From Candidatus Marinacidobacterales bacterium (GTDB taxonomy: Bacteria; Acidobacteriota; Vicinamibacteria; Marinacidobacterales; SMYC01): DNA of 64,000 nucleotides. Of this stretch, positions 34,730 through 53,554 are shown in pieces (the first letter of the stretch is position 1; the number at the start of each line of letters is the position of its first letter). The stretch is taken from positions 1,184,001 through 1,248,000 of the forward strand of contig CBDCYI010000004.1 in the NCBI GenBank assembly GCA_965224085.1, given 5' to 3'. Under the pieces are notes generated by a model. It made no database searches. It was not told where the DNA came from and saw nothing but the letters and a program-made list of their open reading frames with translations. The position numbers were made by a program, and so were the translations under genes.

Positions 34730-34983
34730 GGAAACCCCCTACGTAGCTCTGTGCTTCTCCAAGCGACGAGCAATTCTTTGTCAGCCCGTAGCCGAAGCGA
34801 GTTCCGATTCTAATCGAGGAGACCGCGTTGGGGCAAGCAGTCGCGGCACGAGCTCAGGTGCTTCCGCAATCAAGTGTTGGCGGTGAGCCCTGACCCCTCT
34901 GCGTGGTAGAGTTTGAGCCTGATTTCGAGAGACGCAGTTCTTTTGTCGACAAGGCCCCCGCGAGGTGAAGAAGCTGAGTTGTC

Positions 34984-45479: not shown

Positions 45480-45650
45480 ATGACGATGAGCTCGACCGGT
45501 CTCAGGCCTTTTTCGTCGGTGCTCGCGCTCGGCGCTTTTTCGCTGATAGGATGCGAGGCCCCAGAGTCCACTCGCACGGAGCCGGCGGAGAAGCCGAACG
45601 TCCTCTTCATTTCCGTCGACGATCTGAACGACTGGATCACGACCTATGAC
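45480..45650 (+). pseudogene. Sulfatase N-terminal stub cut near the IS5 left end
   Basis: Lipobox LIGC then KPNVLFISVDDLNDWI; homology ends just before 45661. Confidence 0.7.
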
Positions 45651-45660
45651 ATCTTCGAGT

Positions 45661-46747
45661 GGCGTTGTTGCACCGCTCTTGGCTGAGCGCGAAATCTACC
45701 TATGGTGGTGGCCGAGGTAATGTTCGACCATGAAGTATCCCAAGCGCAGCCAGTACAAGCACGCGAAGCAGAAGAAGTACCACGTTTCCAACTGGGCGGA
45801 ATACAACGAAGGGCTACGCCGCCGGGTCGATTTGACGGTCTGGTTTGACGAGGAGGCAATCGCGAACTGGAAGGCCGACAAGAGCGGTAAGCCTGGCGGT
45901 CAACGGGTCTATTCAGAGATGGCGATTGAAACGGGCCTGGTTGTCCGGATGGTGTACAAGCTTGCCTACCGCCAAACCGAAGGCTTCTTGCACTCGATCG
46001 CCTCGCTTCTCCGGCTGTGTATCGAGATCCCGGACTACTCGACGTTGTGTCGGCGGTCGAGGCTGCTCCGCAAGAAGCTGCGGATTGGGAAAGCCGCAAG
46101 CAATCAACCAATCCACCTGATGATCGATAGCACGGGCTTGAGGATTCATGTTGGAACCACCCGCAAACCGCCAAAGCAGCGCGCCTGGCGCAAGTTGCAC
46201 ATCGCCGTTGATCGCAAGACCGGCAACATTGTTGCGTCCGAACTGACGGCGTCACGAGCTCGCAACGCAACGCGAGTCCCCCCTTTGCTAACACAGATTC
46301 AAGCACCTATAGCGTCGGTGGCGGCGGACAGTGCATACGACAAGGAAGCGGTCTACGAAGCCATCGAAGCGCACAGCCCTGGACGAAGGACGCGCGTGGT
46401 GATTCCGCCGCAACGAAACGCCACGCTCAGTCAGAATTCGAACACCGCCATGCGGGAACGCGACCGCCATATTCGTGCAATCGAAAGACACGGCCGACGT
46501 GAATGGTACAAGCTCTCAGGCTGCACCGAGCGAAGCATGGTGGAGAACGCGGTCTATCGTTACAAGGCGATCATGGGGCCCGAGATGCGGGCTCGAACGT
46601 TGGCGAGGCAACGAGTTGAACACAGAATTGGGTGCGAGATACTCAACAAGATGACCGCGCTCGGCATGCCCGATACTTACTGCGCCGGGTGACTCTCCGA
46701 CCGGCACAGGGAGGTCAGCGATTTGTTCCGGGCCGTGCAACAACGCC
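45661..46747 (+). mobile_element. IS5-family (IS903 group) element
   Basis: Perfect 13-bp TIR GGCGTTGTTGCAC / GTGCAACAACGCC; no flanking direct repeat visible. Confidence 0.9.
45730..46692 (+). CDS. IS5 family transposase
   Basis: NWAEYNEGL, YRQTEGF, PDYSTLCRR, IDSTG, WRKLH, ADSAYD, RSMVENAVYR. Confidence 0.92.
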   Translation: MKYPKRSQYKHAKQKKYHVSNWAEYNEGLRRRVDLTVWFDEEAIANWKADKSGKPGGQRVYSEMAIETGLVVRMVYKLAYRQTEGFLHSIASLLRLCIEIPDYSTLCRRSRLLRKKLRIGKAASNQPIHLMIDSTGLRIHVGTTRKPPKQRAWRKLHIAVDRKTGNIVASELTASRARNATRVPPLLTQIQAPIASVAADSAYDKEAVYEAIEAHSPGRRTRVVIPPQRNATLSQNSNTAMRERDRHIRAIERHGRREWYKLSGCTERSMVENAVYRYKAIMGPEMRARTLARQRVEHRIGCEILNKMTALGMPDTYCAG

Positions 46748-46910
46748 GCTCACGCCCGAACGCGCACAACGTTTGCACCTACGCATCAAGTAGGTGGAAT
46801 GGAGAGGTGCTTCCGCCATCGAGTGATGGGATGGACTCCTCCGCTGACATAGACGGCATCGATGTGCCAAAGTCAGTCGAAAGAACGCATCGAAAAAGGA
46901 GGAGTTCCGA

Positions 46911-47945
46911 ATGAAAGATACGACGATCGCTGTGGATCTTGCAAAGAACGTCTTCGAGATTGCCATCTCGCGCGAAGCGGGGAAGGTGTCCAAGCAACTC
47001 CGTGTGAGTCGACCCAAGTTGGTGTCGTTTTTTGCGAAACAGAGCGCTGCCACCGTGCTTCTCGAAGCCTGCGGCTCGGCTCACTTCTGGGCAAGGACGT
47101 TGCGACGGTTGGGACACGACGTCGTCCTGCTCCCACCTCACCTCGTAAGGCCGTATCGACGCGGGAGCAAGAACGACCGCGCGGACACCAAAGCTTTGCT
47201 CGAGGCTTACCGGAACGAGGAGATTCTTTCGGTGCCCATCAAGTCCGTGCGCCAGCACACCCTCGCCGCGCTCCATCGCCTACGCTCAGGATGGCTCTCC
47301 ACACGGACCGCACGCATCAATGCCGTACGCGGGGTCCTGCGCGAGCTCGGACTCTTCATCCCCAAGGGCGCTCACTTCGTCGTGCCCGCCATCTCCGAGC
47401 TCGTCGAAGACGCTGATTCTGATTTGCCCGACGTGCTCCGTCCGCACCTGCGTGATGCGTGCTCCGAGATTCGAGAGCTCAAGGACAAGTGCGCTGGCAT
47501 CGAGCACGAGCTCAAGGCGCTCACCAAGCAGCTTCCTGAGGTGCAACGACTTCTCACCATTCCCGGCATCGGACTTCTGACCGCGACCGCCATCGTCGGC
47601 TTCGTTGGGGATCTGCGCCGCTTCCCATCGGGACGCCGCTTCTCGAGTTACCTCGGCCTCGTTCCCAAAGAGAACTCCAGTGGTGACATTCGCCGCCTCG
47701 GGCGCATCACCAAGCGTGGCGACTCCTACCTCCGTACGCTCCTCACGCAGGGCGGACGCGCCGTGCTCCGAGCGGCCAACGTCAGCAAGAGCCCGCCCGA
47801 CAAGCTCCGCGCCTGGGCGCGGAAGCTCCACCGCTCGCGGGGACACAACAAAGCCGCGATTGCTGTCGCCAACAAACTCGCCCGGATAGTCTGGGCCGTC
47901 TCCACCCGCGAGAGTGAATTCCAGTCGGTGCCCGCGGCCGCATAG
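46911..47945 (+). CDS. IS110 (IS1111 group) DEDD recombinase
   Basis: AVDLAKNVF, LEACG.AH.W.R, KNDRAD, IPGIG, YLGLVP..NSSG, KRGDSYLR, AVANKLARI; RBS AGGAGG. Confidence 0.95.
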   Translation: MKDTTIAVDLAKNVFEIAISREAGKVSKQLRVSRPKLVSFFAKQSAATVLLEACGSAHFWARTLRRLGHDVVLLPPHLVRPYRRGSKNDRADTKALLEAYRNEEILSVPIKSVRQHTLAALHRLRSGWLSTRTARINAVRGVLRELGLFIPKGAHFVVPAISELVEDADSDLPDVLRPHLRDACSEIRELKDKCAGIEHELKALTKQLPEVQRLLTIPGIGLLTATAIVGFVGDLRRFPSGRRFSSYLGLVPKENSSGDIRRLGRITKRGDSYLRTLLTQGGRAVLRAANVSKSPPDKLRAWARKLHRSRGHNKAAIAVANKLARIVWAVSTRESEFQSVPAAA

Positions 47946-47989
47946 AGGCTCCACTTTCGTGTTTTCCTTCTTCCCTTCCAACAGAGGCT

Positions 47990-48175
47990 GCGACGATACC
48001 CATCCAACTGATGGCGTACCGGTCGGACCGGCGCGGGGTCAAGCCGATAGCAACACTGGCCCTCAGAGGTCGCTCAAAGTGATTGGCTCCTCGCGCGCGG
48101 ATTTTCCGTCATGGCCCGGAGCACCCAAGACGCTCCTCACTGAGGCCGTAGATATGTTTGCAGTCTGACCCACTC
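47990..48175 (+). ncRNA. Candidate bridge/seek RNA in the IS1111 3' non-coding region (second, slightly deleted copy at ~48635-48815)
   Basis: Four short segments match the reconstructed target and donor (see findings); position downstream of the recombinase is typical of the IS1111 group. Confidence 0.7.
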
Positions 48176-48215
48176 GTCACCGATTTGGACGAGCAGCTCT
48201 GAGGAAGACTTTTTT

Positions 48216-48921
48216 GAACGAGGAGATTCTTTCGGTGCCCATCAAGTCCGTGCGCCAGCACACCCTCGCCGCGCTCCATCGCCTGAGGATGGCTCTCCAC
48301 ACGGACCCACGCATCAATGCCGTACGCGGGATCCTGCGCGAGCTCGGACTCTTCATCCCCAAGGGCGCTCACTTCGTCGTGCCCGCCATCTCCGAGCTCG
48401 TCGAAGACGCTGAGATTTGCCCGACGTGCTCCGTCCGCACCTGCGTGATGCGTGCTCCGAGATTCGAGAGCTCAAGGACAAGTGCGCTGGTCGAGCACGA
48501 GCTCAATATGAGGAAGACTTTTTTGAGAAAGGTGTTGATTGAGGAGTCCAGATATGACCCACTCGTCACCGATTTGGACGAGCAGCTCTGAGGCTCCACT
48601 TTCGTGTTTTCCTTCTTCCCTTCCAACAGAGGCTGCGACGATACCCATCCAACTGATGGCGTACCGGTCGGACCGGCGCGGGGTCAAGCCGATAGCAACA
48701 CTTCAGAGGTCGCTCAAAGTGATTGGCTCCTCGCGCGCGGATTTTCCGTCATGGCCCGGAGCACCCAAGACGCTCCTCACTGAGGCCGTAGATATGTTTG
48801 CAGTCTGACCCACTCGTCACCGATTTGGACGAGCAGCTCTGAGGAAGACTTTTTTGAGAAAGGTGTTGATTGAGGAGTCCTGAGGAAGACTTTTTTGAGA
48901 AAGGTGTTGATTGAGGAGTCC
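48216..48921 (+). repeat. Degenerate re-copies of transposase interior, NCR and a 41-bp right-end unit
   Basis: ~48216-48506 copies ~47213-47516 with small deletions; TGAGGAAGACTTTTTTGAGAAAGGTGTTGATTGAGGAGTCC at 48509, 48840 and 48881. Confidence 0.9.
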
Positions 48922-48967
48922 AGATATGATGCTACGGCGGTTGCGTTTTAGGCTTTTGTTCGATTGT

Positions 48968-48996
48968 TGAAATAAAACACGGTCGCGCGACGTCTC
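48968..48996 (+). promoter_or_regulatory. Putative autoregulated ECF-sigma promoter
   Basis: TGAAAT-N17-CGTCTC about 50 nt upstream of the ECF gene, resembling AAC/AAT...CGT ECF promoters. Confidence 0.45.
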
Positions 48997-49047
48997 ATTA
49001 GTAGGGCCGGCACGTGGAAGGGCGGCGCGCGGTATGCTGGGTCGCCT

Positions 49048-49581
49048 ATGGACGCGGACCGAGACGTGCTGGCCCGGTATCTCGACGGTGATGAAAAGGC
49101 ATTCGAAGAGTTGGTCATCCAATATGAAGCCGGGGTTCGAAACCTTGTCTACGGGCTGCTTCGGGACTGGGCGCTCGCCGAAGATGTGGCGCAGGAGACC
49201 TTTCTCACCGCTCATCGCAAGGCCGATACTTATCGTGGAGAAGGAACGGTGCGCGGCTGGCTTTTTCGTATCGCTGTCCGGCGCGCTCACGACGAGTTGC
49301 GGCGTCGCGGCCGCAAGGCCGAAGTGGCGCTCGAAGAGGCGCCCGAGCCGTTCGAGAGCCCACACGAGGGTCTCGAAGCTGGCTGGGATGTCACGGAAGC
49401 GCTCGCGACGCTCTCGCCCGATCATCGTGCGGCGCTAATGCTCAAGGAAATCGAAGGTTTGAGCTATCAAGAGATCGCGGAAGCCATGGATTGGCCGATA
49501 GGAACGGTGGGCACGCATATCCACCGTGCCCGGCTCGAGCTCAAGGCTTTCATGGAGGAGAAGGCACATGGCTTGTCCTGA
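49048..49581 (+). CDS. ECF RNA polymerase sigma factor
   Basis: AFEELV, AEDVAQETF, WLFRIA, GLSYQEIAE...GTV...IHRAR. Confidence 0.92.
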   Translation: MDADRDVLARYLDGDEKAFEELVIQYEAGVRNLVYGLLRDWALAEDVAQETFLTAHRKADTYRGEGTVRGWLFRIAVRRAHDELRRRGRKAEVALEEAPEPFESPHEGLEAGWDVTEALATLSPDHRAALMLKEIEGLSYQEIAEAMDWPIGTVGTHIHRARLELKAFMEEKAHGLS

Positions 49582-50013: not shown

Positions 50014-50430
50014 ATGGTGGCTACAGCGAGGAAGTGGATGAGCGTCACGCTCTTGGCGACGCTTTTCATCGGTGTCGGCGCGGGTATTCTCGTCGACCGT
50101 TTTCTTCTCGGGCCGACGGCCTTTGGCGCCGATGTCGAGGGGCGCAGCGGACGGGGCGGCGACCACCGCGACCATGGCCGTCATATGGTCGAGCGGCTCG
50201 AGGAGCGGCTCGACCTCGAGTCGGACCAAGTGGCCGAGCTCGAAGCCGTCGTGAATCGGCACCACGAGACCGCGCGCGCGTTTTGGAAAGATTCGCGCAG
50301 CCAGTTCGAGACGCTACGCGTGCGAATCCGGCACGATATTCGTGAGCTTCTGACCGAAGAGCAGAAAGTGGAGTTCGACACGATGGTTGCAGAATACGAG
50401 TCCACTAGGGAGCACAGGCGTGAGCGATAA
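50014..50430 (+). CDS. Periplasmic helical Spy/CpxP/ZraP-like accessory protein
   Basis: N-terminal TM/signal, DHRDHGRH, LDLESDQ and LLTEEQ (LTXXQ) motifs. Confidence 0.7.
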   Translation: MVATARKWMSVTLLATLFIGVGAGILVDRFLLGPTAFGADVEGRSGRGGDHRDHGRHMVERLEERLDLESDQVAELEAVVNRHHETARAFWKDSRSQFETLRVRIRHDIRELLTEEQKVEFDTMVAEYESTREHRRER

Positions 50431-53400
50431 AGAGCACATCAACCCCATCGCCAAGTTTGCCGTCGAGCGGCGGGTGACGATGACGATGGCGGTCTTCGGC
50501 ATTTTTGTTCTCGGCTACTTGTCGCTGACGCGACTCCCGCTCGAGTTCATGCCGAGCTTTTCCTCGAACAGCATGTGGGTGCGCGCGCCCTACGCCTCCT
50601 CGTCTCCCGAGGAGGTCGAGCGGCTCATCGTGCGGCCCATCGAAGACATCATCGGGACCGTCAACGGTATCGACACGCTGAGCGCCACCGCTTCCGCCAC
50701 CGAAGGCAGCGTCAATATCACCTTCAAAGACAACGTGGATATGGATCTCGCCGCTGTCGAAGTGCGCGACCGCATCGATCGCGTGCGCCATTTGCTCCCC
50801 GACGATCTGCGCCGGATTCGCATTCGTCGCTTCCAGAGCACCGACATCCCTATATTTCGTTTTCACTTGAGCACCGAATGGGACAAGGATCGCTTCTACG
50901 ACTTTACCGAGCAAGTCGTGCAGCGGCGCCTCGAGCGGCTCGAGGGGGTAGCCTCGGTCGAGGTGCGCGGCATCAGAAAGCGCGAGCTCCAAGTGCAGAT
51001 CCGGCCGAGCCGCTTGCAAGCCGCCGGCCTCGACGCGCGTGACGTCACCAGCGTTTTGCGGAACAACCATGCGAACGTTTCGGGCGGCTACATCAAGGAA
51101 GGCCCGCGCAAGCTCATCGTACGCTCGGTCGGGGAGTTTCGAACCGTCGAGGAGGTCGAGACGCTTCCGATCGGCTCTTCCGGTGTACGCATAAAAGACG
51201 TTGCCGACGTCTCCTACACCTACCCGCGGCAAGACAACTTCAACTTTCTCAACGACAATGAGGCCGTTACACTCAGCGTTTTCAAGGCCTCGACGGCGAA
51301 CCTTCTCGCCGTCGTCGACGGAGCGAAAGCGGAGCTCGAAGCAATTAAGGCGATGCGGTCGGCCGAAGGCCTCGAGACGCGCATCTTGATGGACTCCTCC
51401 GTTGACGTGCGTCAGGGGCTCGGACAGCTGCGCAATGCCGGGCTTCTCGGGGGCGTTCTCGCCGTCGTCTTCCTTTTCCTCTTCCTCCGGAAGCTTCGGA
51501 CGACAGCGCTCGTCGCCATCTCGATCCCCATCTCGATCATCCTGACCTTCGTCATCTTGTACTTCTTGCGACAGCTCGGCTTGGTGACGACGACAATCAA
51601 CGTCGTGAGCTTGATGGGACTCATGCTCGCGGTCGGGATGCTCGTAGACAACTCGGTCGTGGTCATCGAGTCGATTTCGCGCCACTTCACGGATCTTGAC
51701 GAGGACCCGCGGACGGCGGCCCTCCGAGGCACCTCGGCGGTGGCGATGCCCATCATCGCGTCCACGCTCACGACCATGTGTGTGTTCATCCCCATGATCT
51801 TTCTCGCGACGACAGGCGGCGGGTTCATGCGCTTCATGCTCGATATCGGCATCACCATCTGTATCGTGATGGTGTCGTCGCTTCTCGTTGCGCTGACAGT
51901 CGTGCCGATGGTGGCGTCCATTCTGCTCGGCGGTGAGACCAAGAAAGAGTCGAAGCTCACCGAGGCGCTCGAGACGGGCTATGGCCACGTCATCGGCTTC
52001 ACGTTGAAGCACCGCCTCTTGTTCTTCCTAGTTATCGTCGGGATGCTCTACGGATCCTACGAGCTTCTCGGGACGATCGAAAGGACGTTCTCTCCTCGCA
52101 CGATGGCCCGGCAGATCTCCATCAACGTCGATACGCCGCGCTCCTACTCGCTCGATCAGACCCGGAAGCTCCACGCGGAAGTCGCCACGATCCTCAACGA
52201 GAACCAGGAAGAGCTCGACATTTCAGACGTCGTCTACCGCTATAGCCGCACCGGCGGACGCTCCCGGGGAGGCTTTCGCGGGAGCCGCAAAGTCGACATC
52301 TATCTCGTCGACGAGGAAGAGGCGAAGCGCCCCGTGCGCGAGATCCGAGACGCGATCCGCGAACTTCTGCCGATGAAAGCGGGCGTCAATTTCAAAATCG
52401 CCCAGAGCACGGGCCATGGGGGGCATGGCGGCGGCAGCTTCGGCGTCAATCTGGACCTCAAGGGCGACGACATGGCTGTGCTCGAGCTAGTGGCCGAGCG
52501 CGTCGTGACCGCTCTCGAGGACACATCCTGGGCGCGCGACGTCGACAGCACGCTCGACAGCGGCACCGACGAGATTCGTGTGAGCGTCGATCGTGAGCGT
52601 GCGCTTGCTTCTGGGCTTTCGACCCAAGCGGTGGCCTTTTCTATCTCGAACGCGCTGTCTTCCCGCCCGATCAGCCAGATCGCTGCGGACGATCGGGAAG
52701 TCGACCTCGTCGTGCAGTTCCGGGAGGAGGACCGCTCGACACTGGATCAGCTAAAGAAGGTGCCGATCATGTCGAGCGCGGCGGCGCTTCCCATCGGGGC
52801 GATGGCCGATTTCGAGATACAACAGGGGCCGCGGCGTATCGAGCGCGAAGACAAAAGGCCCAAGCTCAGCATCACCGCCAATACCAACACGGCCGGCGCG
52901 TCGTTCCGCATGCAGGGCCAAGTCAGCGAGATTATGAACAGCATCAGCTTGCCTCTGGGCTACGAATGGGGCTTCGGGCGCAGCTGGGGCCGCGCCCAGC
53001 AGGACTGGGGGAGCGCGCTCTTCGCGTTCATCTTCGCGCTCGCTTTGATCTATTTGATCATGGCGGCTCTTTTCGAGAGCTTCGTCCAGCCTTTCACGAT
53101 CATGTTCGCCATTCCGTTCGCTTTCATCGGCGTCGGGATCGTGTTGAAGCTCACGAGTCAGCCGCTCGACAACATGGCGAATATGGGGCTCATCATTCTC
53201 GTCGGGGTCGTCGTCAACAACGCTATCGTGCTCATCGCCCACATCAATCATCTGAGATGGCAAGGTGTTTCGCGCGACGAAGCCATCATGCTTGGCGGGA
53301 GGCACCGTTTGCGGCCCATCTTGATGACGGCGCTCACAACGATTCTCGGTTTGTTTCCGATGGTCGCCCCGCTCATCTTCCCTGGTTTTCTAGGGAACGC

Positions 53401-53554
53401 GGAAGGCCGTGCCGGCAACTGGGCGCCCGTCGGGCTGGTCATTCTCGCGGGACTCACGACGTCGACCTTTCTGACGCTCGTGATCATCCCGACAATTTAT
53501 TCGCTGGTGGATGACATCACGCGATTTTTTGGAAAGATTGTTCGAGCGGCTTGA
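50420..53554 (+). CDS. RND efflux permease (AcrB/AcrD/AcrF family) #1
   Basis: SSPEEVE, GMLVDNSVVVIE, ASTLTT..VF.P, ALFESF..PF.I, VVNNAIV, RLRPILMT. Confidence 0.93.
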   Translation: MSDKEHINPIAKFAVERRVTMTMAVFGIFVLGYLSLTRLPLEFMPSFSSNSMWVRAPYASSSPEEVERLIVRPIEDIIGTVNGIDTLSATASATEGSVNITFKDNVDMDLAAVEVRDRIDRVRHLLPDDLRRIRIRRFQSTDIPIFRFHLSTEWDKDRFYDFTEQVVQRRLERLEGVASVEVRGIRKRELQVQIRPSRLQAAGLDARDVTSVLRNNHANVSGGYIKEGPRKLIVRSVGEFRTVEEVETLPIGSSGVRIKDVADVSYTYPRQDNFNFLNDNEAVTLSVFKASTANLLAVVDGAKAELEAIKAMRSAEGLETRILMDSSVDVRQGLGQLRNAGLLGGVLAVVFLFLFLRKLRTTALVAISIPISIILTFVILYFLRQLGLVTTTINVVSLMGLMLAVGMLVDNSVVVIESISRHFTDLDEDPRTAALRGTSAVAMPIIASTLTTMCVFIPMIFLATTGGGFMRFMLDIGITICIVMVSSLLVALTVVPMVASILLGGETKKESKLTEALETGYGHVIGFTLKHRLLFFLVIVGMLYGSYELLGTIERTFSPRTMARQISINVDTPRSYSLDQTRKLHAEVATILNENQEELDISDVVYRYSRTGGRSRGGFRGSRKVDIYLVDEEEAKRPVREIRDAIRELLPMKAGVNFKIAQSTGHGGHGGGSFGVNLDLKGDDMAVLELVAERVVTALEDTSWARDVDSTLDSGTDEIRVSVDRERALASGLSTQAVAFSISNALSSRPISQIAADDREVDLVVQFREEDRSTLDQLKKVPIMSSAAALPIGAMADFEIQQGPRRIEREDKRPKLSITANTNTAGASFRMQGQVSEIMNSISLPLGYEWGFGRSWGRAQQDWGSALFAFIFALALIYLIMAALFESFVQPFTIMFAIPFAFIGVGIVLKLTSQPLDNMANMGLIILVGVVVNNAIVLIAHINHLRWQGVSRDEAIMLGGRHRLRPILMTALTTILGLFPMVAPLIFPGFLGNAEGRAGNWAPVGLVILAGLTTSTFLTLVIIPTIYSLVDDITRFFGKIVRAA

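Follow-up and report, generated by a model that had tools for sequence, protein, structure and literature searches.

Predicted guide segments, target repeat and a composite copy of a probable IS1111-family insertion sequence in a Marinacidobacterales genome

Can the RNA that would lead an insertion sequence (IS) to its target and to its own joined ends be read beside its recombinase gene? This question is raised by an interval (46813-48940) of a 64,000-nucleotide stretch of contig CBDCYI010000004.1 from a Candidatus Marinacidobacterales bacterium (assembly GCA_965224085.1; 12 contigs, 6.87 Mb), the whole of which is called the window here. A sequence-only reading had proposed four short guide segments in the non-coding region 3' of an intact recombinase gene, in the order right-target, left-target, right-donor and left-donor. 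Our analysis indicates that the interval is very probably one copy of an unnamed IS1111-family IS with a long seekRNA, or bridge RNA. The element is an ordinary further case of the known RNA-guided IS1111/IS110 transposons.

The recombinase, its predicted RNA and the four proposed guide segments

The recombinase open reading frame (ORF) matched Pfam PF01548 (DEDD_Tnp_IS110) at 2.2e-11 and PF02371 (Transposase_20) at 1e-25, and scored 306.5 bits against NCBIfam NF033542 'IS110 family RNA-guided transposase' (cut-off 140). It therefore carries both the N-terminal DEDD (RuvC-like) and the C-terminal Transposase_20 domain that define the IS110 family. Residues D9, E52 and D92, as well as G249, L250, P252 and G258, were invariant in protein alignment A2, which was built without locus L067, as this carries a stop codon.

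The IS1111 traits of transposase and non-coding region were taken from section 6 of PMC11187229 and from statements in PMC11208160, both of which give subterminal inverted repeats of 7-17 bp. Here, the repeats GGACTCCTC and GAGGAGTCC matched at 9/9 bases and were positioned inward of the core, at distances of 7 and 5 nt. In the canonical copy, 85 nt (46826-46910) separate the core TG from the start codon and ~300 nt follow the stop codon, so the long non-coding region is 3' of the gene, and the 344-amino-acid (aa) transposase with YLGLVPKENSSGD fits the 330-350 aa and the GL-P----S(T)G motif of IS1111 transposases. The IS1111-type assignment and the intact recombinase beside the guides were thus borne out.

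Downstream of the gene, conservation of the DNA at ~48010-48165 extended to relatives whose proteins share just 45-49% identity. Seventeen sequences were aligned, and RNAalifold on the MAFFT alignment recovered four helices and missed the inner hairpins because their loop lengths differ; the structure (38 pairs in 7 helices) was therefore set by hand and refitted with a covariance model, R1. A search with this model returned 87 matches in 99 sources. Every match was 3' of the gene and on its strand, and two were in the window, scoring 139 bits (48006-48167) and 123.5 bits (48651-48807). After refitting, the alignment comprised 86 distinct rows, and pairing was seen in 91.7% of 3,189 cells, compared with 80.0% in shuffles and 31-48% in controls with slid partners. 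Changes on both sides were found at 26/38 pairs (341 cells vs 84 in shuffles), all 7 helices covaried and 0/500 shuffles reached any of the five covariation measures. As the alignment was fitted to the model, these pair counts lean towards it; that the helices are real is supported by the slid controls and by how many pair types each position shows. For helix P1, column 5/155 held GC in 54 rows and CG in 27, and column 9/151 held GC in 62 and AU in 15. The minimum free energy fold of the single sequence had z = -1.77 and was uninformative, with the guides buried in alternative pairs. Of the check by folding and covariation that had been proposed, the covariation came out in favour of a ~160-nt structure, which would be the conserved structured RNA expected from the non-coding region of a seekRNA-bearing element. 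Helix columns were mapped to window positions through alignment A3.

The four proposed segments, TAGCA (48048-48052), AGTGAT (48078-48083), TCCGTCAT (48105-48112) and AGATATG (48150-48156), were all present in the sequence, and their order was upheld; all four positions track their DNA partners across relatives. The right-target guide was correctly placed but is longer than TAGCA and reads TAGCAACAC. Together with AAGTG, it matches AAG-TG-TTGCTA, and the target loop is an internal loop between P3 and the inner hairpin, with TCAAAGTG (48074-81) as its 3' arm. Because the right-target arm precedes the left-target arm, the match to the top strand comes 5' of that to the bottom strand, the order that section 9 of PMC11187229 describes for IS1111 seekRNAs; guide order and RNA sizes are documented in sections 6, 8, 9, 10, 13 and 14 of that paper.

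Donor segments were also found, the right-donor one largely inside P1 and with a small signal. Of the two-loop design that had been proposed, the internal target loop held, while the donor side departs from a simple second internal loop: the donor guides sit either side of the P4 stem-loop, and right-donor guide bases 48106-48112 form the 3' strand of P1, paired with 48008-14 (CUGAUGG). The expectation that the segments would fall in loops rather than stems accordingly failed in part, with 7/8 bases of TCCGTCAT in this covarying helix. Durrant et al. (PMC11208160) remark that the donor-binding nucleotides of many IS1111 orthologues are in a multi-loop, with the RNA in the right end, and the P1-bound guide agrees with this remark. 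In a sister variant (L029), the right-donor guide TTCCATCAT is the perfect complement of its own ATGATGGAA. The TT after AGATATG corresponds to the first two target bases in the window element (handshake bases), a relation that was weak over 68 relatives (1.10 vs 0.91 of 3; 17/5000).

To compare guides with DNA, the 87-row alignment supplied the guide columns, and each locus its own flanks and ends; dropping the second window copy left 86 rows, with a right end recognised in 68 and a left end in 66. In permutations that ignore the relatedness of the elements, all four guides agreed with their partners beyond the permuted values. The longest run shared by the right-target guide and the right flank was 6.63 vs 4.15 (standard deviation 0.12; 67 distinct pairs, 0/2000), and 3.45 vs 2.34 for the variable part alone (0/2000). 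The left-target guide and the left flank shared a run outward from the core of 3.03 vs 0.56 (59 distinct pairs, 0/5000). For the right-donor guide and the left end, 5.08 vs 4.70 of 7 positions formed Watson-Crick pairs (39 distinct pairs, 0/5000), and for the left-donor guide and the right end plus dinucleotide, 5.95 vs 5.15 of 7 were identical (21 distinct pairs, 0/5000).

Individual variants followed the same rule. The right-end variants AGATA, ATATA, ATACA and AGACA are each mirrored by the left-donor guide. At P1 column 9, column 151 and position 4 of the right-donor DNA (RD), the combinations were G/C/G in 36 rows, A/T/A in 11, G/C/A in 9 and G/T/A in 3; RD ATGGCAT is paired with guide AUGCC(C)AU, and ATGGAAT with UUCCAU. 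Natural retargeting was seen in L026 (guide GATAACAAT, flank ATTGTTATC), and non-consensus guides were matched in the flanks of L107, L165 and L141 over 8-9 nt and of L095 over 7 nt. A metagenome contig (run X1) tracks L007 up to GCCGATA (position 2726, window ~48044), diverges exactly at the right-target guide and then has a matching inner hairpin, which suggests a co-occurring variant with a different guide.

By homology and covariation, the most likely mechanism would be as follows. The RNA would be bound by the recombinase, and the internal loop closed by P3 would read the target, TAGCAACAC pairing with the top strand of G-TG-TTGCTA and AAGTG with the bottom strand of AAG-TG. The segments flanking P4 would read the joined element ends, (UU)CCGUCAU pairing with A-TG-ATGG(GA) and AGAUAUG matching AGATA-TG. 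Recombination at the TG core would then place the element, in one orientation, 18 bp into the repeat GGTGCTTCCGCCATCAAG|TG|TTGCTACGCC, which has dozens of genomic occurrences and resembles an end of other mobile elements. We infer the donor reading from covariation.

Target repeat, core and composite make-up of the window copy

Element matches numbered 24 in the source genome, 9 of them near-full over a 1,411-nt query, and clean (canonical) copies were ~1,420 bp. Two additional metagenome-assembled genomes (MAGs) carry the element at 93-99% DNA identity, and the closest relatives are in MAGs labelled Candidatus Marinacidobacterales.

The quoted junction strings were present in the window, with CCGCCATCGAG-TGATG-GGATGG on the left (46813-46835) and CCAGATA-TGATG-CTACGGCGG on the right (48920-48940). 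Comparison with other copies gave the target consensus that had been anticipated, with TG as its core and not TGATG. In the source genome, 11 left junctions read ...(A/G)AG-TG-ATGGGATGGACTCC, one of them with TG-TTGGGATGG, and the external right junctions were mostly GGAGTCCAGATA-TG-TTGCTA.... Over 41 unique left and 27 external right flanks from three genomes, the left consensus was GGTGCTTCCGCCATCAAG, terminated by TG in 41/41, and the right flanks began with TG in 22/27, followed by TTGCT-a-c-G-c-c-G-C. The target, GGTGCTTCCGCCATCAAG-TG-TTGCTACGCC, is a genomic repeat that was found uninterrupted at many places with a single TG, as ATCAAG-TG-TTGG.... Since the flanks share TG alone and the uninterrupted repeat has a single TG, the core is this dinucleotide. 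TGATG is peculiar to the window copy and appears there because its right flank starts with AT, not TT; this copy occupies a variant site with one mismatch per side, GAG vs consensus AAG on the left and ATGCTA vs TTGCTA on the right. The CCGCC/GGCGG arms described for the target were absent as a family feature, the consensus right flank being ...TTGCTACGCCG.

The nearest named relative of the recombinase was ISPa25 (47.1% aa identity, the best plasmid match), which is situated in a class 1 integron. Section 9 of PMC11187229 assigns one common target site to ISKpn4, ISPst6 and ISPa25, and section 8 identifies that of ISKpn4 as an attC site; numerous relatives in our set are flanked by ...TGTTAGSC-like sequence. 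Because its target is GGTGCTTCCGCCATCAAG-TG-TTGCTACGCC and not the attC site of an integron cassette, the window element is a relative of the IS1111-attC group and not a member by target; on these sequence comparisons, it is a retargeted relative.

The repeat itself probably represents a terminus of other mobile elements. The 20-mer GGTGCTTCCGCCATCAAGTG (<=4 mismatches) occurred at 60 places in the source genome with at least 3 continuation families, and copies formed inverted pairs 260-276 bp apart that resemble miniature inverted-repeat transposable elements (e.g., C4:55886-56145 and C5:1866521-1866796). One 2.27-kb pair, which the repeat scan did not report, encloses an IS5-like gene (136 bits, below the cut-off of 140).

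The interval 46813-48940 had been taken as a single element, which it is not: it is a rearranged composite (Table 1). Its intact parts are the left end, the gene, RNA copy 1 and the terminal right end, at 99.4% identity to the canonical copy, and ~680 bp of scrambled partial duplicates precede the right end. One joint is at TG, and the remaining four have 1-4 nt of microhomology. The second RNA copy (48651-48807) has lost GGCCC (5 nt), and with it the 5' strand of the inner target hairpin, a form with a single occurrence in the source genome. Tail duplications were also found in other source-genome copies and in an independent MAG (L028, L036, L037, L043).

This make-up raises the possibility that the window copy is a relic that no longer moves, or in part an artefact of assembly, with the 680-bp patchwork 48216-48880 either not existing in this form or having inactivated the element; what had been called an element would then be no functional unit. 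We regard this as unlikely, although it is the alternative that survives best. It would account for the four joints by microhomology instead of TG, for the duplicated pieces differing from their sources almost solely by small deletions and for the damaged RNA copy 2; moreover, the sequencing data compared were contigs, set against a canonical copy. However, the tail duplications of the same kind in the other copies and the independent MAG have joints exactly at the right end, and the functional parts of the window copy are intact. By analogy with those copies, the scrambled stretch would be real in the genome.

Table 1 Features of the IS1111-type element in the window.
Feature	Position	Strand	Remarks
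Left target half (LT) GGTGCTTCCGCCATCGAG	46806..46823	+	genomic-repeat part; G at -3 vs consensus A
Core TG, left copy	46824..46825	+	TG ends 41/41 unique left flanks
Left end of element	46826..46910	+	right-donor sequence ATGGGAT 46826-46832; subterminal inverted repeat GGACTCCTC 46833-46841; then 5' untranslated region
Recombinase gene, intact	46911..47945	+	344 aa; IS110-family RNA-guided DEDD transposase; motif GLVPKENSSG
Bridge / long seek RNA, copy 1, intact	48006..48167	+	covariance model R1: 139 bits, E 4e-34
Helix P1	48008-14 with 48106-12		
Helix Pa	48019-22 with 48028-31		
Helix P2	48032-37 with 48090-95		
Helix P3	48042-48 with 48082-88		
Inner target hairpin	48058-61 with 48068-71		
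Helix P4	48113-16 with 48144-47		
Inner hairpin	48118-22 with 48132-36		
Right-target guide TAGCAACAC	48048..48056	+	reverse complement of G-TG-TTGCTA; 5' arm of target loop
Left-target guide region TCAAAGTGAT	48074..48083	+	AAG-TG = left target + core; final AT in P3; 3' arm of target loop
Right-donor guide TTTTCCGTCAT (RNA UUUUCCGUCAU)	48102..48112	+	pairs with A-TG-ATGGGA, two G.T/U.G wobbles
Left-donor guide AGATATG(TT)	48150..48158	+	= right end AGATA + core TG; single-stranded, 3' of P4
Block, canonical 1-1394	46823-48217		99.4% identity
Block, canonical 390-692	48216-48506	+	degenerate internal recombinase-gene duplicate; 4 small deletions; non-coding debris
Block, canonical 1377-1424	48509-48556	+	right-end tail, terminating CCAGATA-TG
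Block, canonical 1343-1381	48555-48593	+	joined at TG to preceding right-end tail (block 48509..48593)
Block, canonical 1122-1417	48590-48880	+	second copy of 3' non-coding region; 5-nt deletion
Block, canonical 1376-1424	48880-48928	+	true right end
True right end, parts	48880..48926	+	subterminal repeat GAGGAGTCC 48913-48921; left-donor sequence AGATA 48922-48926
Core TG, right copy (48927-48928), and right target half ATGCTACGGCGG	48927..48940	+	A at +1; consensus and guide expect T

A second copy of the target repeat is present in the window, unoccupied (GGTGCTTCCGCAATCAAGTG, 34857-34876, + strand) and followed by TTGGCG, not by the guide-matched TTGCTA. Elsewhere in the genome, a different IS110-family transposase (376 aa; NF033542, 258 bits) is encoded beside a repeat copy (L171, G000:C4:30196-33700; 935-2065, - strand), so more than one RNA-guided IS may use this repeat family. 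A reverse-transcriptase gene (RVT_1, 2.6e-39) is found beside an uninterrupted repeat variant, ATCGAT-TG-TTGCTACGCC (L170, G000:C4:1822931-1826300; 677-1801, - strand). Just upstream of the occupied repeat, an IS5-family transposase gene (45730-46692, + strand) matched NF033579 (248.7 bits) and Pfam DDE_Tnp_1_5 and DDE_Tnp_1, with apparent element ends near 45650 and 46755. This element was rejected as the target, as its own inverted ends, GAGTGGCGTTGTTGCAC and GTGCAACAACGCC..TCAC, differ by eye from the repeat. The downstream host genes encode an extracytoplasmic function (ECF)-type sigma factor (Sigma70_r2/r4; 49048-49581, + strand) and a 1,055-aa ORF (50387-53554, + strand).

Proposed donor reading, core asymmetry and right-end joints

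A second alternative is that the target-reading domain alone is the guide, the donor guides being by-products, P1 purely structural and the ends recognised by the protein via the subterminal repeats. P1 indeed covaries as an RNA-RNA helix, the DNA keeps G where column 5/155 is C-G, and RD is nearly invariant (ATGR), so that its complementarity could be inherited and not selected. In addition, section 10 of PMC11187229 reports that a short 82-nt seekRNA of ISEc11, characterised by its target matches, was enough for transposition, and sections 10 and 14 leave the role of the long form open. We nevertheless consider this alternative improbable, given the concordance of columns 9 and 151 with each other and with RD position 4, the co-changed pairs of RD ATGGCAT and ATGGAAT with their guides, the mirroring of all four right-end variants and the conservation of the full 160-nt structure, not of the target domain alone, in 87 matches. 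That the four matches are a chance likeness in an ordinary 3' untranslated region or terminator has next to no probability: each spans 5-9 nt only and Rfam gave no match, but TAGCAACA, AAGTGAT, CCGTCAT and AGATATG occurred together in this order in 0/200,000 cases when the 270-nt non-coding region was shuffled by mononucleotides, and the family-wide covariation of the structure, and of guides with flanks, already contradicts it.

Several observations nonetheless weigh against one long RNA that reads both target and ends. On the target side, an extra A in the left-target guide (TCAAAG vs TCAAG) limits in-register pairing to AAG+TG, and the tail counts of the guide-flank comparisons overstate independence because the shuffles ignore relatedness. 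On the donor side, RD is so little varied that the signal linking it to its guide is small, seven bases of this guide are engaged in the RNA-RNA covarying helix P1, and in the C-G clade at column 5/155, the G in the dinucleotide of the DNA is mismatched with the guide; as the short form sufficed for ISEc11, donor reading by the long form may not be necessary. Rfam gave 0 matches at E <= 1 over 46000-49500, and a promoter scan found 0 sigma-70-like sites. The predicted circle junction, ...GAGGAGTCCAGATA-TG-ATGGGATGGACTCC..., was found neither in the genome and loci nor in the contigs of 4 runs, which drop rare forms. In two RNA libraries, the contigs extended over parts of the gene and over the last ~130 nt, and none over the RNA region; such contigs are uninformative on expression or its absence. 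Contigs from two DNA runs cover a canonical copy. Terminator-like sites were no more frequent than in shuffles, and a possible promoter seen by eye over the joined ends (TTGATT ... TATGAT) has a spacer of just 12 nt.

Within the reading of a long RNA with four guides, the core dinucleotide behaves asymmetrically. In most relatives, the left-target and left-donor guides have CG, the left junction TG and the right junction mostly CG; 17/52 rows are CG/CG/TG/CG (left-target guide, left-donor guide, left junction, right junction), and from L025 to L167 the left junction is almost always TG and the right mostly CG. The right-donor guide in most relatives reads TG, as at the left junction, and the other three guides CG, as at the right junction. 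ISPa25 likewise has TG on the left and CG on the right, and the window element is the sole row with TG in both guides and both junctions. Such a pattern would be in keeping with a heteroduplex or with an intermediate of single-strand transfer.

Right ends (GAGGAGTCCAGATA) were also joined to internal element sequence, in 11 distinct joints (TG in 8, CG in 2, AG in 1). On their left side, all joints coincide exactly with the boundary of the element, and in the 10 TG or CG joints the internal sequence shows, by eye, TG or CG at the joint point; as TG and CG together make up 16.2% of element dinucleotides, the binomial P for 10/11 is ~1e-7. These joints suggest, from their sequences, a recombinase acting on a right-end half-site and a pseudo-site, the products being by-products. 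Exact target and donor modules were present in 15 copies each in the genome vs 9 near-full elements. Reciprocal products, i.e., truncated heads ending x-TG-TTGCTA, were sought and none was found. Eighteen distinct head truncations were considered and rejected, as they abut unrelated DNA, several of them a (C)GTCCTGTGCCAAAACTCGGCCC repeat end; their appearance is that of copies interrupted by other elements. At several loci (C5:1927912-1928223, L056, L059, L072; C5:1892510), DNA ending (C)GTCCTGTGCCAAAACTCGGCCC cuts the element at varied internal positions, and this DNA resembles the end of a further mobile element for which the IS is itself an insertion site.

Taken together, P1, the core asymmetry and the right-end fossils make it conceivable, if rather doubtful, that the long RNA form does more than carry four guides. 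The right-donor guide would be held in P1 by an RNA copy of the donor top strand, the RNA 5' strand, its 3' strand and the DNA co-varying, an arrangement that would suit a gate which strand displacement opens, or a reading of both strands of the left end. Recombination of right ends with TG/CG pseudo-sites would build tandem RNA-plus-right-end modules as 'half-match' fossils.

Comparison with known RNA-guided elements

The locus is a natural example of an RNA-guided IS1111 element in an uncultured lineage, with many copies and a sharp target consensus, and its close relatives with co-changed guides and flanks make the guide code readable without experiment. The 87 RNAs and their own flanks offer computational support for a long seekRNA of the IS1111-attC type that reads the element ends, and the element shows a core change from CG to TG together with retargeting from attC-like sites to a repeat resembling a terminus of other mobile DNA. 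The field gains from it a confirmation and a useful data set rather than a surprise; of specialist interest are the P1 pairing of the right-donor guide with a donor-strand copy, the CG/TG core asymmetry and the joints of right ends with pseudo-sites.

The closest known systems are ISPa25, ISKpn4 and ISPst6 of the IS1111-attC group. ISPa25 ends TG-ATGGAAT-GGACTCC ... GGAGTCC-ATATA, the same architecture as the window element, and its RNA scaffold is identical column for column, GCCGATAACA...GGCC...CGAT(T/A)GGC...CCATGATGGCC...ATATACG. The group and the window element share the top-strand match 5' of the bottom-strand match, and the size of the window RNA agrees with the long forms of 148-154 nt in a review table (PMC13604230). 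They differ in the target (the AAG-TG-TTGCTA repeat vs attC, ...CG-nnTGTTAGSC), in the core of the left-target and left-donor guides (TG vs CG), in the right end (AGATA vs ATATA in ISPa25) and in the host, which here is an uncultured lineage.

The comparison of ISEc11 with ISXne4 in section 10 of PMC11187229, where the stems are kept and the guide bases and flanks swapped, has its parallel here between the window type and L026, a computational parallel between different elements. Modular circles of ISPpu9, as described in PMC12288879, recall the extra RNA-plus-right-end modules without a gene in the window genome (15 vs 9 near-full), and the 'half-match' recombination that 10.64898/2026.08.31.748434 describes for IS621 resembles the window joints in using the right-end half-site only. 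Unlike in those two systems, what is seen here are genomic fossils in an IS1111-type element, known from sequences alone.

Like the window element, IS621 combines a DEDD recombinase with one bridge RNA whose target and donor guides address both strands around a dinucleotide core. However, its RNA is 5' of the gene, whereas the window RNA is 3', and the target guides come in the opposite order. In the window RNA, the donor guides flank a stem at a junction, one of them partly in a helix, whereas IS621 has a simple internal loop, and the window element, unlike IS621, has long subterminal repeats.

IS4321 and IS5075, also of the IS1111 family, reportedly insert in one position and orientation inside the terminal repeat of other transposons. 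Their target sequence and host differ from those of the window element, for which the target as a transposon end is partly shown.

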